A stretch of 64,000 bases of DNA from a bacterium (lineage in GTDB: Bacteria; Patescibacteriota; Minisyncoccia; UBA6257; JAUSGH01): positions 10,907 through 74,906 of the forward strand of contig JAUSGH010000001.1 of assembly GCA_030649055.1 (NCBI GenBank). The letters run 5' to 3'. Both the position numbers and the translations under genes were made by a program. Shown piece after piece: positions 2,696-50,943 of this stretch. Below the pieces are notes generated by a model that did not search any database, was not told where the DNA came from, and worked only from the letters and a program-made list of their open reading frames with translations. The first letter of the stretch is position 1. The number at the start of each line of letters is the position of its first letter.

Positions 2696-3274
2696 ATGGC
2701 AGAGGAAACACCTATGACGCCGGAAGGCGCGGTGACACAACCGGAGGAGATGGCCATGACGCGGCCGAAGCTGGACGAGCCGCCGCGGCTCGTGAAGGTC
2801 AACGGTGAAGACCGCTCGCGCCCGGGGTGTGGACTCTACGGAGAGTGGGGCGAATACGGCCTGAAGCATGCCATTGTCTATTTTCTGGACAACTTGCTCG
2901 CCGGCAACTTCGACGAGCTCCCCGCTCCGCACATCGTCTTCGGCCCTATCACGTTGAAGCTGCGTCGGCACGTGGGATGTGATGGCGAGTACATCGCCTA
3001 CGGTGAGCCGATGAACGACGAACGGCCGGATTGGTTCGTGGGTAGGACGCGGAAGCTGAGATTTGAGGTTGAGCTTCTGTCTTCTTCTGGCGTCGACGTG
3101 CTGGAATACAACCTCCGGAAGTTCGCGCTGAATAAGAGCTGGCGGGTGCTCGCGGTGTTCTTCGGTCCTGCCCGCACGCTGCGGATCTGGAAGAAGGAAG
3201 ACGGAGGGTATGGTCTGGAGACCTACGGCCTTCCGAAGACCGAGGAAGAATGGAACTGGCATCCGCACAGTTAG
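2696..3274 (+). CDS. Hypothetical protein (GC-rich orphan)
   Basis: ATG at 2696 sits 4 nt after a GGAGG RBS. The opposite-strand ORF 2630..3295 is Arg-rich and looks like a shadow ORF. A convergent terminator hairpin follows. Confidence 0.55.
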   Translation: MAEETPMTPEGAVTQPEEMAMTRPKLDEPPRLVKVNGEDRSRPGCGLYGEWGEYGLKHAIVYFLDNLLAGNFDELPAPHIVFGPITLKLRRHVGCDGEYIAYGEPMNDERPDWFVGRTRKLRFEVELLSSSGVDVLEYNLRKFALNKSWRVLAVFFGPARTLRIWKKEDGGYGLETYGLPKTEEEWNWHPHS

Positions 3275-11402: not shown

Positions 11403-11747
11403 ATGACGTGGGAAGAATTTCTGAAGCCGGATCTCAAAGGGCGCGAGGCCGAGATCCGATGGGGTGTCGGGTCTGGCGAACGCGGGTGCATCGACAACAT
11501 CATCTACTACGCCAGGACCGGGGTCGTCTCTGTGTACTGGCGCCTCACCGCTATGCGCTGGGACGTGACAGCGCCGTGGCGGAAGGTGGGCGAGGAAAGG
11601 GGCGGTAACCTGGACGACCCCATCTTCCAGGTCGTCGGCGACCCGGAGAAGAAGGAAGACGGATCGGTGCTATTTCATTTTGGTGGTGGTGAGGTGGAGA
11701 TCTCTCCTCCTGAAGCCGACCGCCAGGCGAAGATCCTCTGTCCGTAG
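11403..11747 (+). CDS. Hypothetical protein (114 aa, GC-rich)
   Basis: Strong GGGAGG RBS 8 nt before the ATG. Confidence 0.5.
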   Translation: MTWEEFLKPDLKGREAEIRWGVGSGERGCIDNIIYYARTGVVSVYWRLTAMRWDVTAPWRKVGEERGGNLDDPIFQVVGDPEKKEDGSVLFHFGGGEVEISPPEADRQAKILCP

Positions 11748-30771: not shown

Positions 30772-30844
30772 GGGCGTGTAGCTCAATGGTTAGAGCACCG
30801 AGCTTATACCTCGGTGGTTCCTGGTTCGAGTCCAGGCACGCCCA
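30772..30844 (+). tRNA. tRNA-Ile (anticodon TAT)
   Basis: Acceptor gggcgtg/cacgccc, D-arm gctc-aatggtta-gagc, anticodon stem ccgag/ctcgg with loop cttatac, T-arm cctgg-ttcgagt-ccagg. No CCA encoded. Confidence 0.7.
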
Positions 30845-30890
30845 CAAATTTATTACATCCGAGCGAACCGATTGCATGCTAAAGGCATGG

Positions 30891-37576: not shown

Positions 37577-37606
37577 TTGACGTCCACGAAGCACCAGTGC
37601 TATATT
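37577..37606 (+). promoter_or_regulatory. Sigma70-like promoter for the tRNA cluster
   Basis: TTGACG, 18-nt spacer, TATATT. Gives a roughly 60-nt leader with the hairpin ggatgg..ccatcc before the first tRNA. Confidence 0.5.
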
Positions 37607-37675
37607 CGTACCTAGTATAAAGCATATAGGGGATGGTGGTGCAATTCCATCCGGATCCATGACCGTCCTACTTGG

Positions 37676-37747
37676 AGCGCATATGGTGCAACGGTAGCAT
37701 CTCCCTTCCTGACGGGGAGAGATGGAGGTTCGAATCCTCCTATGCGT
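37676..37747 (+). tRNA. tRNA, anticodon region ambiguous (CCT-Arg or CTG-Gln depending on the stem register)
   Basis: Acceptor gcgcata/tatgcgt (G1-U72), D-arm gtgc-aacggta-gcat, T-arm ggagg-ttcgaat-cctcc. The anticodon stem can be drawn as tccct/gggga with loop tcctgac, or as ctccc/cgggg with loop ttcctga. Confidence 0.55.
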
Positions 37748-37754
37748 TTTCTGC

Positions 37755-37865
37755 CGCGGGCGTAGTTCAATTGGTAGAACCTGAGCGTCTTCCTTCTTCG
37801 TTTGTAGCTAAGACCTGGAGAAGGTAATGATACCCAGATATGTCGGTTCAAGACCGACCGCCCGC
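37755..37865 (+). tRNA. tRNA-like gene with an insertion of about 40 nt in the anticodon region (candidate intron-containing or non-canonical tRNA)
   Basis: Canonical acceptor gcgggcg/cgcccgc, D-arm gttc-aattggta-gaac and T-arm gtcgg-ttcaaga-ccgac. About 60 nt lie between the D-arm and T-arm. They hold an 8-bp helix (37791-37798 paired with 37816-37823) nested inside a 5-bp helix ctgag/cccag. Confidence 0.5.
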
Positions 37866-37935
37866 TTTCCGCGATATCGCCCGGGACCTCACGGTTTCCG
37901 GGCGATGATCTTTTTGGTAACAAGCAAGGAGGCGA

Positions 37936-38445
37936 ATGATGTTCTGCCCTCGTTGTGGACACCGGATGGAAAGCCGCGAAAGGGTGTTTCTGGGTGGCGT
38001 CGTATTCTCCGAGTTCGGCTGTGTGCGATGCAACCGGGCATTCCTCACGAACACGCCACGCGTAAAGACGATGGATGATCGGTTCAAGCTCGGCGAGTCC
38101 ATGTGTACGTGGAAGGAAACGCTGAAGAGCCCGGTGATGCCATTGGGAGAGGCGAAGCGTCGCAGGGATGTGTGGACGGGCAAACGGATGCGTCGGCGTT
38201 GTGTGCCGCGCTTTTGCCCGAAGTGCGGCGCGCTGCTCGAGATGCTGCGCGAGTGCTACGAGCGTGGTCGTCCGCGCGCGGTCTACGGATGTCCGAGTCG
38301 CCGGAGTTGCGGCATGATCTACGTCCAGCCAGCCAAGTACTTCATGGAGCTCTCCGAAGTGGGCCGTGACTGGACGGAGTACAAGCGGTGGTGTATCCGG
38401 AAGAACCGGCAATTGTGCCGGGAAAAGGCGTCGAGACGGATCTAG
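37936..38445 (+). CDS. Hypothetical Cys-rich zinc-ribbon protein (GC-rich)
   Basis: AAGGAGG RBS. CPRCGH..CVRC and CPKCGALL..YGCPSRRSCG motifs. 169 aa. The opposite-strand ORF looks like a shadow ORF. Confidence 0.5.
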   Translation: MMFCPRCGHRMESRERVFLGGVVFSEFGCVRCNRAFLTNTPRVKTMDDRFKLGESMCTWKETLKSPVMPLGEAKRRRDVWTGKRMRRRCVPRFCPKCGALLEMLRECYERGRPRAVYGCPSRRSCGMIYVQPAKYFMELSEVGRDWTEYKRWCIRKNRQLCREKASRRI

Positions 38446-46657: not shown

Positions 46658-47552
46658 AATGATTACACTGAAATGTTGACCTTAAAGCATAACCCCTGCG
46701 GCTCCTAGTCCTCCATAAAGAGGACAATTTCCAGAGCCGCGCACAGCGGCTTTTGTCGTTGTAAGGGGACCGGTGCTGACTGAAACGAACGGACATTGAT
46801 AAACAGGATCTGACAGAAAATTCTTTTTTGTCGGGTGCTCATAAGTAAATCAATGCAAATGAAAACGCAATTTCAAGAGTATTATCGAAAGCATTCAATG
46901 CTTCGATGATCGGTTTTACTGCTCAATATCTGCATGATGGCGGAGTATTGAGTACGCCTCGTTAAGTCGCCTCAGGCGACCGCGAGGTTGCACGCGTTGA
47001 ATTCAGAGCGTGTATAAGGGCGTATGGTGGATGCCTAGACACAAAATGGCGATGAAGGACGCAGCATAACTGCGATAAGCTTCGGGGAGGTGTGTAGCAA
47101 CCTTTGATCCGGAGATTTCCGAATGGGGAAACCCTGCGCGGTAAACCCGCGTAACGCATGCGATTAAACGCGCATGTGAGCAGACCCGCTGAAGTGAAAC
47201 ATCTCAGTAAGCGGAGGAATAAAAATAGATTAGATTCCCCAAGTAGCGGCGAGCGAAAAGGGAACAGCCTAAACTTTAGTGTGTGCAGCAATGTATACGC
47301 TGGAGGGTTGCAAGGGTAAGACATTTTTGCGTATCGCAAAGCTCTCGTTAAACAGGGCTGTGCGATTCGCGGAAGATTGGTTACAAATTGCTTCGTTAGC
47401 TGAAGCTTCTGGAAAGAAGCGCCAAAGTGAGTGATAGCCTCGTAAGCGAAAACAAAGCAACCAATTCGTTTTATTTCTTAAGTACCTCGAGACCACAACA
47501 TCTCGAGGGAATCCGCCAGTACTATCTGGTAAGGCTAAATACATTTTGTGAT

Positions 47553-47589
<37 letters not shown>

Positions 47590-49458
47590 CAGCCCGGCGA
47601 GGGCGCTGAAATAGTACCTGAAACCATATGTCTACAAGGACTAGAAGTCCAACCACTGAGCAATCAGTGGCGGACAACTAGGTGCCTATTGAAGAATGAG
47701 CCAACGACTTTACGTTTACTGCTTGTCTAAGTCGCTTCATGCGACGGAGGCATAGGGAAACCGAGTGTTAATAGCGCGTTCTCTTATTTATGACCGAGTA
47801 GCTGGTATGCTTCCAGCGTTCGGTCATAGATGAGAAGGCAGTAAGTGTAAGACCCGAAGCCAAGGCGAGCTTGCCCTGACCAGGATGAACCCGAGCGAAA
47901 GCGAGGGGGAGGTCCGAACCAGTTGATTGTGCAAAATCTTTGGATGAGTTGGGGTAAGAAGTGAAAAGCTAATCGAGCTTGGTAATAGCTGGTTCTCTCC
48001 GAAATAGTTTTAGGACTAGCGTTCCGCAAAAACCGTATGGGGGTAGAGCACTGGTTGATTCGTATTGGGGGAAACCTCGGCGCATCAGTCAAACTCCGAA
48101 TACCATACGGGACGCGGGATAGTCAGACTGTGGGGGCAAAGCTCCATGGTCGCGAGGGGAATAGCCCAGACCGTCGTCTAAGGTCCCTAAATTCTTGCTA
48201 AGTGTAAAAGGTAGTCATGCCCCAGAGACAGATAGGAGGTTGGCTTAGAGGTAGCCATCCTTTAAAGAGTGTGTAACAACTCACTATTCGATGGGTCGTG
48301 GCGCCAAAAATGTACCGGGGCTAAGCAAGATACCGACGACACGGGTGTCCATGACTTCGGTCGTGGACGCGGTAGGAGAGCATTCTGATTGCTGTGAAGG
48401 TTCATCCGTGAGGAGGACTGGAGCGTTCAGGAGTGAGAATGTTGGCATGAGTAACCATCAAATCCGATGAGAAATCGGATCCCCGAAAATCCAAGGTTTC
48501 CGTGGCAATGGCAATCAACCACGGGTTAGGCGATCCTAAGGCAATGGCGAAAACCGTAGCCGATGGGTAGCCGGTTAATATTCCGGCCCGCGCTTATTTG
48601 TGCGATGGGGTGACGGAGGAAAAAAGGTTGAGCGTCTCAATGGTTTGACGTCGCTGATGATAAGGAATGTGTTCTTGGCAAATCCGGAGCACTGTGTTTA
48701 ATCGCGAATTCCGCGCGTCGGCGTAAGGCCAAGTTTTACTTGGCTAATTCAACTGAAGAGCCTTCCAAGAAAAACCTCTAAGTTTAGGATAAGCGCATCG
48801 TACCGTAAACCGACACAGGTGGGTGAGGCGAGACGCCTCAGGGGAACGAGTGAGTCTTGGTCAAGGAACTAGGCAAAAAAGCGGCCGTACCTTCGGTATA
48901 AGGCCTGCCCGTCACGCCGCAAGGTGTGCATGGGCTGCAACAAAAGTACATTTGGCGACTGTTTATCAAAAACACAGCTTCCTGCTAACTCGTAAGAGGA
49001 TGTATAGGAGGTGACACTTGACCGATGCGAGAAGGTTAACGGTGGGTGTGTATTCGAAAGCAATTTTGGATATGCTCACTGCCCGAAGCCCTCGTCAATG
49101 TCAGCGGTAACTATAACCGTTCTAAGGTAGCGCAATTCCTTTCCGGGTAAGTTCCGGAGCGCATGAATAGTGTAACGATCGAATGACTGTCTCGACCAAG
49201 AGCTCGGTGAAATTGCGATTCCCGTGAAGACGCGGGATACCTGTAACGGGACGAAAAGACCCCGGGAGCTTTACTGTAGTTTGATATTGGCTTTAACGTT
49301 TTTCTGCGTAGCGTAGTGGCGAGGGTATGAAACCTGGTTTTCGGATCAGGTGGACCCGACAATGAAACAGCCATCTGGAAAATGTTAAAATCTAACCTTT
49401 ACGGCAAAAACGTATTGGGACAGTGTCTGATGGGCAGTTTTAATGGGGCGTTATCCTC

Positions 49459-49793
49459 AACAAAACGATTGACATCCGTTCAATCGAGGGGGTTAACGTA
49501 ATAAAAAATTCAGCTATATGCTGGGACATCCGTGCATCTTCAAGTACTCGGGCGCTTCGCGCTCAGTGAAAATCTTGAAGTGGCATCCGCCAGGTGGCGG
49601 ATCGACGGACAATCAGCAGGCAACCTCCGACGGACATCGGAGAGAGTCCTCAACGACTATACGCTGAACATCGTGATGTCACTCGCGATGAAGATATAGT
49701 CTGACCTCTGTGGCGACACAGAGAGTTGTGGTAGAAATGCCGCGCCGATCACCGGCAACTAAATTTTAGAGTTGCTGGCGATGTGTAACAAAT
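49459..49793 (+). other. ORF-less insertion of about 335 nt in 23S next to the P-loop region (candidate group I intron)
   Basis: Flanking sequence reads ...ggcgttatcctc | insertion | ctaaaaagtaacggaggag. The flanks together restore the conserved GGTCTCCTCCTAAAGAGTAACGGAGGAG. Boundaries +/- 2 nt. Confidence 0.55.
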
Positions 49794-50127
49794 GCCTAAA
49801 AAGTAACGGAGGAGTTTATTAAGGTTGGCTTAGCGCGAATGGAAACCGCGCTGGACGTGTAAACGCAAAAGCCAGCTTGACGGCAAGACCTACAAGTCGC
49901 GCCGGTGCGAAAGCAGAAGTTAGTGACCCGATGATCCGTCATAGAATGGTCAGAGACATCGGCTAAAAGTTACCCCGGGGATAACAGGCTAGTCTGGTCC
50001 GAGAGTTCCTATCGACGACCAGGCTCGGCACCTCGATGTCGGCTCGCCCTAGCGCGGAGGTGGAGAAGCTTCCAAGCGTATGGCTGTTCGCCATTTAAAA
50101 GGGCACGTGAGCTGGGTTCAAACCGTC

Positions 50128-50401
50128 AACGAAAAAGAACCTAGAGAAGACATCAACAAACGGCGGCGCTTTGCCGTAAGGCAAAGCTGAGAAGTTGACT
50201 CATATCGGTGAAGTCCTACAAAATCTTTAACCTGGGTTTTGAGGATAACCCCGAGGGAAGGTCCGATGAACGTCGGACCCCCGTAGAGACTTGATCGTAA
50301 GGGATCGGAATCCGGTTTTATAATCGGGTTAATACGTCAACCCTCCGATGAATATCGGAGTGATGGTATAGTCCAAACAATTAGTAATAATTGAGTATTG
50401 C
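50128..50401 (+). other. ORF-less insertion of about 274 nt in 23S at the I-CreI-type homing site (candidate group I intron)
   Basis: Flanks aaccgtc | insertion | gtgagacaggttagtc restore the conserved AACGTCGTGAGACAGTTCGG. Boundaries +/- 2 nt. Confidence 0.55.
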
Positions 50402-50826
50402 GTGAGACAGGTTAGTCTCTACCTGTTACAGGCGTGTGATGCTTGAGGGCAGTCGACCCTAGTACGAGAGGACCGGGTTGAACGAACCTCTGGTCTACCA
50501 GCTTTAGTACCAACTGAATCGCTGGGTAGCTAAGTTCGGAAGGGATAAGCGCTGAAAGCATATAAGCGCGAAGCCTAGCCCAAGATAAGGCATCTTTCCG
50601 CAAGGAAGCAGTCCGTAGAAGATTACTACGTTGATAGGTCGCAGGTGTAAGATCAGTAATGATTTCAGCCGAGCGATACTAATAGACTGTCACACGCTCT
50701 GAATTGAGCGCATGAAAGTAGCGTTCTCTGTAGAAATATAGAGGGCGCCAGTAAAACCGATCATCAAAGCATTGAACCCCCGCCTTTCGGCGGGGGGAAA
50801 GGGTTAGAAAAAACAACCTTTTTGTT

Positions 50827-50943
50827 TGCTGGTGTTTTGTTTCGATGTGTCCCACCTCTTCCCATTCCGAACAGAGTCGTGAAAGCATCGTGAGCCGATG
50901 ATACTAGCTGCTTCGGCGGCCGGGAAAGTAGGATATGCCAGCA
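50827..50943 (+). rRNA. rrf: 5S ribosomal RNA
   Basis: tgctggtg...cccacctcttcccattccgaacagag...ccgatgatact...gggaaagtaggatatgccagca. Confidence 0.85.

Follow-up and report, generated by a model that had tools for sequence, protein, structure and literature searches.

In Staphylococcus aureus, non-proteinogenic tRNA-Gly isoacceptors serve as glycine donors for the FemXAB peptidoglycan bridges (PMC7826273), and mascRNA and menRNA are cut from MALAT1 and MEN-beta, respectively, mascRNA being processed by tRNA enzymes and taking no part in decoding (PMC11693755). For bacterial tRNA-Gly, the glycine identity set and the consensus sequence have been described (PMC9976931), and the Patescibacteria are rich in tRNA introns, those published being self-splicing group I ribozymes (PMC13011429). 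Here we analyse gene C, a tRNA-like gene with a greatly enlarged anticodon region, which lies in a 64-kb stretch of contig JAUSGH010000001.1 (assembly GCA_030649055.1; the whole stretch is called the window below) from a member of the Patescibacteria (candidate phyla radiation). With moderate confidence, and from sequence comparison, we propose that gene C gives rise to an RNA that does not decode and descends from a bacterial tRNA-Gly gene, and that it belongs to a small operon of tRNA-shaped RNAs specific to one Harrisonbacteria-like lineage of the Patescibacteria. Our literature search turned up no account of tRNA-like genes in Patescibacteria that lack an anticodon or have an expanded arm. 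The parts of gene C are as follows; the arms and the discriminator were read directly from the sequence.

37756-37866, + strand: gene C, tRNA-like gene of 111 nucleotides (nt), putatively tRNA-Gly-derived, CCA not encoded
37756-62 / 37859-65, + strand: acceptor stem, GCGGGCG / CGCCCGC
37765-80, + strand: D arm, GUUC-AAUUGGUA-GAAC
37781-37837, + strand: 'anticodon' arm, enlarged to 57 nt and folding as an interrupted ~20-bp helix with the terminal loop GUAGCUA; lineage-specific; occurs once in the window
37842-58, + strand: T arm, GUCGG-UUCAAGA-CCGAC
37866, + strand: discriminator U

The initial annotation had placed a tRNA-like gene with canonical acceptor, D and T arms at 37755-37865. The gene is real, although its true position lies one base further right, and its character is borne out by the sequence, by a cloverleaf fold and by the Rfam tRNA model RF00005, which under permissive filters gives 40.5 bits against a gathering score of 29 (E-value 2e-7 when only the local region is counted, 4e-5 over the window as a whole). 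The tRNA features of this model, i.e. the acceptor, D and T arms, U8, a D loop of the G18G19 type and the T loop, are all present, and positions 8 and 9 read U8 A9. The alignment, however, skips the anticodon arm, whose 57 nt are treated as a local insertion replacing 18 model positions; gene C is called neither by ARAGORN at default settings nor by a filtered Rfam scan at the gathering threshold. The D and T stems are 61 nt apart (the 57-nt arm plus AUAU; 60 nt had been given initially), compared with the usual ~22. Two nested helices had also been described for this region: the inner 8-bp helix CCUUCUUC / GGAGAAGG exists (37792-99 / 37817-24, one G-U pair included), but the outer 5-bp helix 'ctgag/cccag' forms only four of its five pairs, the remaining one being an A-C mismatch. 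In the minimum free energy fold, a cloverleaf of -42.3 kcal/mol (z = -3.8 versus shuffles), the helix of the arm is composed, in order, of CUG/CAG, G-C, GUC/GAU, CCUUCUUC/GGAGAAGG and GUUU/AGAC, closed by the loop GUAGCUA.

Nowhere in gene C did we find a 5-bp anticodon stem with a 7-nt loop carrying U33 and a purine at position 37, nor an anticodon conserved among its orthologs, and because an anticodon stem-loop is missing the RNA should be unable to decode. The initial annotation had considered a tRNA with a long variable arm as one alternative; this type II reading fails, as the sequence 5' of the hairpin accommodates no anticodon stem-loop and the variable region measures just 4 nt (AUAU). 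ARAGORN finds no transfer-messenger RNA (tmRNA) in the window, and pair 3-70 of gene C is G-C and not G3-U70. A match to YrlA (RF02553; 19.4 bits against a gathering score of 69) proved to be an artefact that joins the T arm of the neighbouring gene B to the D arm of gene C, and a dispersed-repeat origin of the 36-nt insert was rejected with its single occurrence in the window. What the evidence favours is the last alternative of the initial annotation, a tRNA-derived RNA that does not decode.

Syntenic loci were recovered through the contigs of RsmE and zinc-ribbon homologues, the genes that flank the array in the window, and through one metagenome pattern scan: L001 (identical to L002-L004 and L015), L011, L013, L014, L016/L017, L012+L019 and L020. 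They belong to Harrisonbacteria-like Patescibacteria and share the order RsmE, promoter, tRNA-like array, hairpin, zinc-ribbon gene. L012 and L019 (sample ERR15087765) overlap by 21 identical bases (L012 2934-2954 and L019 1-21), and when joined make up one locus with RsmE, promoter, leader, five tRNA-like genes and the zinc-ribbon gene. The metagenome scan, with a pattern spanning the junction of genes B and C, returned only two loci, one of them new (L014), and a strict D-arm/T-arm DNA pattern had no match in genome contigs. Four contigs (L005, L010, L012 and L021) end before the array; in two of them the region downstream of RsmE consists of degenerate TGCGGAT(G/A) repeats (L005 3733-3884 and L010 2727-2821), with no array before the contig end. 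The copies of gene C compare as follows (total length; anticodon-arm region; distance from D stem to T stem).

Window: 111 nt; 57-nt interrupted helix, loop GUAGCUA; 61 nt
L001: 74 nt; 7-bp stem, loop AAGGU; 24 nt
L011: 70 nt; CUCGC-CUUGU-GCGAG; 20 nt
L013: partial, contig ends; CUCGC-CUUGU-GCGAG
L016: 70 nt; CUCGC-CUUGC-GCGAG; 20 nt
L020: 71 nt; GUCGU-UCGAG-ACGAC; 21 nt
L014: 60 nt; arm absent, 10-nt linker only; 10 nt

The top half of the molecule tells of constraint. We aligned 50 nt of it from the six complete orthologs, and all 16 acceptor, D and T pairs are standard in every one of them (96/96 cells), five having changed on both sides (4-69, 5-68, 6-67, 11-24 and 51-63). Not one of 500 column shuffles matched the observed pairing or covariation score, and in a control in which the 3' partner was slid by 1-3 columns pairing falls to 35-52%. 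Across the same comparisons the top half is 68-86% identical, compared with 43-63% at four-fold sites of RsmE and the zinc-ribbon gene. At the level of sequence, the acceptor, D and T arms are thus shown to be under purifying selection with compensatory changes. The elbow behaves similarly: among the gene C orthologs a D-loop GG goes with a T-loop UUC and a D-loop AGCA with a T-loop UGC. Counting all tRNA-like genes of the window, L001, L011, L013, L014, L016, L019 and L020, a D loop ending in AGCA is accompanied by a UGC T loop in 5/5 cases and a GG D loop by a UUC T loop in 11/13, which suggests that the contact between the two loops has been maintained in gene C, the sequences being few and not independent of each other. 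The AGCA/UGC combination may reflect an alternative elbow, with C20-G55 next to G19-C56.

The anticodon arm follows a different course. It is absent in one ortholog, a capped hairpin of 15-19 nt in most and 57 nt long in the window, and this long form is missing from all orthologs (10-24 nt between D and T stems). None of the tabulated orthologs has a 7-nt loop with U33, their hairpin loops being 5 nt long, and ARAGORN assigns them haphazardly to Pro, Thr, Ala or Ser. Since the length of the arm is unconstrained among the orthologs, we regard the 57-nt arm as a lineage-specific expansion; from these comparisons, the extra ~40 nt look like a local expansion of a dispensable arm and not like an intron. 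Indeed, the initial annotation had named orthologs without the extra 40 nt beforehand as a sign against an intron, and those found here point to a local insertion. A chimera of gene C with the preceding gene A was rejected, as the arm in the window resembles the long gene A arms of the relatives no more than shuffles do.

The origin of gene C can be read from its 5' part. Its first 25 nt match E. coli tRNA-Gly(CCC) at 24/25 positions with one indel, an inserted U; the E. coli sequence was checked and is 100% identical to annotated tRNA-Gly genes in 5411 genomes (RefSeq). None of G1-C72, C2-G71, G3-C70 and U73 varies among the six complete orthologs, whereas pairs 4-6 covary; G10 is paired with C or U at position 25 (G10-Y25), and the variable loop, which has 4 nt in the window copy and in L001, reaches 5 nt in L011, L016 and L020. 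The glycine elements of the acceptor half (U73, G1-C72, C2-G71, G3-C70) together with G10-Y25 and the variable loop agree with the published identity set and tRNA-Gly consensus (PMC9976931). The glycine determinants C35 and C36 are absent, as no anticodon loop exists in the copies of the window, L001, L011, L016, L020 and L014. When 2.9 million viral contigs were searched with a degenerate pattern of the top half, the single match was a phage tRNA-Gly(CCC); another match of the viral scan was a chance hit in a tail-fibre gene and was discarded. BLAST against phage records gave a tRNA-Gly as the best match (E = 0.09), followed by D arms of tRNA-His from T4-like phages, none of them significant.

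Gene C is part of a transcription unit with the following further elements.

37577-37606, + strand: promoter of sigma-70 type serving the tRNA-like operon; TTGACG and TATATT, separated by 18 nt whose last three are TGC
37629-37658, + strand: remnant of the leader and gene A, 30 nt, GGGGAUGG fused to a T arm and 3' acceptor strand (GGUGG-UGCAAUU-CCAUC-CGGAUCC)
37677-37749, + strand: gene B, tRNA-like, called tRNA-Gln(CUG) by ARAGORN; Rfam 51.6 bits
37876-37915, + strand: terminator-like hairpin AUCGCCCGG...CCGGGCGAU with a T run (37911-15), read from the sequence
37939-38445, + strand: gene of a basic double zinc-ribbon protein, ~168 aa, with Pfam zinc-ribbon matches and two CxxC...CxxC ribbons

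The promoter matches the consensus at 10/12 positions in the promoter scan and carries a TG extension, and TTGAC[AG]-N17/18-TAnnnT stands at the equivalent place in six related loci (seven loci in all). The terminator-like hairpin is conserved in L001, L011, L014 and L016; a scan with a consensus terminator did not call it, its loop exceeding 8 nt. Gene C thus lies between a strong, conserved promoter and a conserved hairpin, in the same unit as gene B. Its want of an encoded CCA is shared by 2/3 canonical tRNAs of the window. In the relatives the promoter is followed by a full leader hairpin of ~110 nt (GGGGAUGG...CCAUCCC), for which Rfam offers no match, and then by gene A, a tRNA-like gene with an extended anticodon arm of 45-50 nt (L011 2780-2981, L013 2780-2984, L016 140-337 and L020 30-234).

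The companion genes show a comparable freedom outside the acceptor and T arms. The loop of gene B in the window reads UCCUGAC, with C at position 33; among its orthologs the anticodon changes from CUG to CUU (loops UCCUGAA and UCCUUAC) or a penta- or tetraloop (GGCAU, GUGA) takes the place of the loop, and in L013, L016, L011 and L020 the D region contains an insert of 20-90 nt. Across the orthologs the acceptor/T minihelix of gene B is nevertheless 100% paired, with 5/12 pairs changed on both sides. On this sequence evidence gene B is probably another non-decoding tRNA-like RNA, and its annotation as tRNA-Gln may be wrong. A further tRNA-like gene occurs in two relatives (L014 1396-1466 and L019 468-538) and has no copy in the window; it has a canonical loop CUCUAAA (anticodon CUA, which would read UAG), a covarying anticodon stem of 5-6 bp and a UGC T loop, and GG is missing from its D loop. 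The copy in L019 is called tRNA-Pyl by ARAGORN, and the gene could be a tRNA of the amber-suppressor type.

Directly downstream of the array, in every recovered locus that reaches upstream of it, lies the zinc-ribbon gene. The family is restricted to this clade, with nine members (including the homologues P0121-P0129) among 5.8 billion proteins. In genome contigs of the GTDB species representatives 133 pattern matches were obtained and none was confirmed; the clade therefore appears to be absent from these representatives. The protein has only generic zinc-ribbon matches in Pfam and NCBIfam, and its AlphaFold model is poor (pLDDT, the predicted local distance difference test score, of 67) and has no match in the PDB at E < 1, so that these comparisons gave no lead to its function. 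A functional link between the zinc-ribbon gene and the array would be conjectural.

If gene C is a non-decoding RNA of tRNA-Gly descent, its transcript would probably be cut by RNase P at G1 and trimmed at the 3' end, CCA would probably be added, none being encoded, and the RNA would presumably fold into an L-shape whose long arm is unable to read a codon, so that it would act through its acceptor and elbow half. Its most likely role, as judged from the sequence, is that of a glycine-accepting carrier or decoy outside ribosomal decoding, for which charging is only predicted; we make this guess because G1-C72, C2-G71, G3-C70 and U73 are invariant and G10-Y25 is kept. Possibly the RNA is instead the ligand of a protein that binds the top half of tRNA, with the zinc-ribbon neighbour as one candidate. 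More tentatively, and with doubts outweighing our confidence, the loci may represent an undescribed class of bacterial 'top-half' tRNA-like RNAs: promoter-driven arrays of 2-5 tRNA-derived genes in which the acceptor and T arms (mostly also the D arm) and the elbow are conserved, the anticodon arm or the D region is dispensable or expandable (arms of 0-57 nt, D inserts of up to ~90 nt) and a clade-specific zinc-ribbon gene always follows, the RNAs acting as glycyl carriers or protein ligands outside decoding. In such a class the zinc-ribbon protein might take the place of the absent anticodon arm, in a manner similar to SmpB with tmRNA.

Several observations weigh against a maintained, glycine-accepting RNA. 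Without C35 and C36, glycylation of gene C might be weak or absent, and the invariance of pairs 1-3 is statistically weak (~0.1 by chance). A Pfam scan of most window open reading frames (ORFs) of at least 160 aa revealed no gene for an aminoacyl-tRNA transferase (Fem, MprF or similar). The orthologs, six complete and one partial, are all metagenomic and come from one narrow clade. Furthermore, a deletion has removed the leader and gene A from the operon of the window, whose lineage may therefore be relaxing constraint, and a possible ortholog, L019 225-297, has a canonical-looking loop, UUUACGA, from which it follows that the ancestor of gene C was an ordinary tRNA and that decay keeps some probability.

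These last points lead to the rival that survives best, namely that gene C is a decaying pseudogene: a duplicated tRNA-Gly would have lost its anticodon arm, the 40-nt insert would be junk and the RNA would have no function. Besides the deletion in the operon, it can draw on the anticodon arm, which cannot be aligned between orthologs and is lacking altogether in one of them, on the fold of the 57-nt arm by itself, which is unexceptional and no more stable than shuffles (z = -1.5), and on the bulged acceptor stem of L019 225-297. Yet all acceptor, D and T pairs have been kept in six lineages, five of the pairs by compensation, although identity at neutral sites is down to 43-63%; a long-dead pseudogene is disfavoured because its stems would be broken by now. 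The promoter and the terminator-like hairpin are conserved as well, and the changes in D and T loops are coordinated. We hence consider decay unlikely, disfavoured as it is by the covariation, and possible for the window copy alone.

Less probable still is a tRNA scaffold with a payload, in which the top half would provide processing and stability and the variable arm would be the active part, as an antisense or protein-binding hairpin. Engineered replacements of the anticodon arm are stable and correctly processed in E. coli (PMC3753655), and gene A of the relatives always has an arm of 45-50 nt. In addition, a 14-mer of the 5' strand of the arm, CGUCUUCCUUCUUC, is exactly complementary to two + strand ORFs (3190-3203 and 11648-11661); the 14-mer, CGTCTTCCTTCTTC at 37786-37799, thus has two exact reverse complements, and its matches number three, compared with 0.05 expected from shuffles. 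However, the 14-mer is buried in the helix of the arm, and both complementary ORF sites encode KKEDG in common codons, so the matches may be a coincidence of codon usage. Nor is the payload conserved: the arms are wholly different between close relatives and absent in one ortholog.

We likewise give little credence to a processing or stability module, in which the tRNA-like units would be cleavage signals for RNase P and RNase Z, or 5' structures, of a transcript reading through into the zinc-ribbon gene. Co-transcripts of tRNA and mRNA are known, e.g. thrU-tyrU-glyT-thrT-tufB of E. coli. In the window the ribosome-binding site of the zinc-ribbon gene lies only ~20 nt beyond the T run, the promoter scan found no separate promoter for this gene, and array and gene adjoin in every locus that spans both. 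Against this, a conserved hairpin with a T run lies between the array and the gene, and cleavage signals need neither a conserved D arm nor a coordinated elbow nor invariant positions 1-3 and 73.

The weakest rival, a short intron of archaeal or eukaryal style as suggested by the initial annotation, whose removal (36-40 nt) would restore a decoding tRNA, is very improbable, since the tests for introns are negative and the orthologs mostly lack anticodons. It can point to the abundance of tRNA introns in the phylum (PMC13011429) and to the intron mode of ARAGORN, which reports a tRNA-Ile(AAU) with a 36-nt intron at position 33/34, but the spliced product has two mismatches in the five pairs of the anticodon stem and an Ile anticodon with A34 on a body of Gly type. 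A brute-force search for the bulge-helix-bulge motif (3-nt bulge, 4-bp helix and 3-nt bulge at the exon-intron junctions) gave two strict candidates in gene C compared with 1.4 in shuffles, both consuming bases of the D arm, and 26 compared with 24 when one mismatch was allowed. The group I model RF00028 has no match at 37650-37950 even at E <= 10, although the same model detects the 23S rRNA intron at 49461-49723; with 36-57 nt, the insert is far too short for a group I ribozyme core (P1-P9, >~200 nt), the only type published for patescibacterial tRNAs (PMC13011429). No splicing endonuclease or ligase was seen among the scanned ORFs of the window (Pfam, most ORFs of at least 160 aa), and orthologs without the insert mostly have no anticodon loop to restore.

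The window carries housekeeping genes (SecA, MurB, PNPase, S1, GyrA, FtsH and FtsW); the gene upstream of the array encodes RsmE, whose named relatives are from Harrisonbacteria, Colwellbacteria and a 'Patescibacteria group', and the downstream neighbour, a protein of 338 aa, shares 83% identity with one from a Harrisonbacteria genome. This neighbour was rejected as a partner of the array, as it is widespread in Patescibacteria (>1100 homologues, with a sub-threshold GalT-like match at E ~0.1) and not specific to the arrays. A link to Glu-tRNA and the C5 pathway was dropped too, because the adjacent class-III aminotransferase does not match HemL best. A canonical tRNA at 30772-30845 (+ strand, 75.7 bits) has the anticodon UAU (Ile), which is uncommon in bacteria. 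The 23S rRNA gene (47004-50703, + strand) measures 3.7 kb compared with ~2.9 kb usually, with expansions including one near 47320-47380; it holds the group I intron at 49461-49723 (75 bits), and a second match, at 50144-50394, is weaker and stays below threshold with 26 bits. It is followed by 5S rRNA (50828-50943, + strand), and no 16S rRNA lies in the window.

Should gene C be expressed and functional, it would represent natural bacterial tRNA bodies that selection has kept without an anticodon; such RNAs would reveal which parts of a tRNA are needed outside decoding in organisms with minimal genomes, and would provide engineered tRNA scaffolds, as well as eukaryotic mascRNA, with a natural counterpart. 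Standard annotation misses gene C or labels such genes tRNA-Pro, Thr, Ala, Ser, Ile, Gln or Pyl, and because they are missed or mislabelled, tRNA inventories of Patescibacteria and inferences on codon reassignment can be corrupted.

Among known systems, bacterial tRNA-Gly (E. coli CCC) is close in sequence: gene C shares with it the acceptor GCGGGCG/CGCCCGC, U73, U8 A9, the D arm GUUC-AAU(U)GGUA-GAAC, G10-Y25, a 4-nt variable loop and a canonical T arm, but it differs in lacking the anticodon stem-loop of 5 bp and 7 nt with C35/C36, in place of which stands an arm of 57 nt (0-19 nt in the orthologs). The non-proteinogenic tRNA-Gly of S. aureus (PMC7826273) offers an analogy for the role, being of tRNA-Gly type as well, with an acceptor end that can be aminoacylated and a use that is plausibly outside translation in both cases; the S. 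aureus isoacceptors, however, still have an ordinary anticodon arm bearing a glycine anticodon, and the glycyl-tRNA synthetase charges them, and no Fem-type gene was seen among the scanned window ORFs of the host of gene C. Intron-containing pre-tRNAs likewise have extra sequence at the position of the anticodon arm, in a phylum known for insertions in tRNA and rRNA genes (PMC13011429), but gene C has no bulge-helix-bulge, ribozyme or restorable anticodon loop, and its orthologs without the insert are mostly anticodon-less. With the tRNA-like domain of tmRNA and the YrlA module (PMC4201824) gene C has in common a bacterial origin, a retained top half and a replaced anticodon arm; unlike gene C, tmRNA has the alanine identity pair G3-U70 and an mRNA-like domain, and the 5' and 3' ends of YrlA lie in the Ro-binding stem. 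Engineered tRNA scaffolds (Ponchon and Dardel; PMC3753655) resemble it in that a tRNA body has its anticodon stem-loop exchanged for an arbitrary hairpin; these are synthetic, and since the arm is not conserved a natural payload is unsupported here. A parallel in shape is found in mascRNA and menRNA (PMC11693755), which are L-shaped cloverleaf mimics with an intact half of acceptor, T and D arms and a degenerate anticodon arm. Whereas mascRNA is eukaryotic and is cut off a long non-coding RNA at the 3' end of the latter, gene C stands alone as a bacterial gene, within a unit that runs from promoter to terminator together with other tRNA-like genes.

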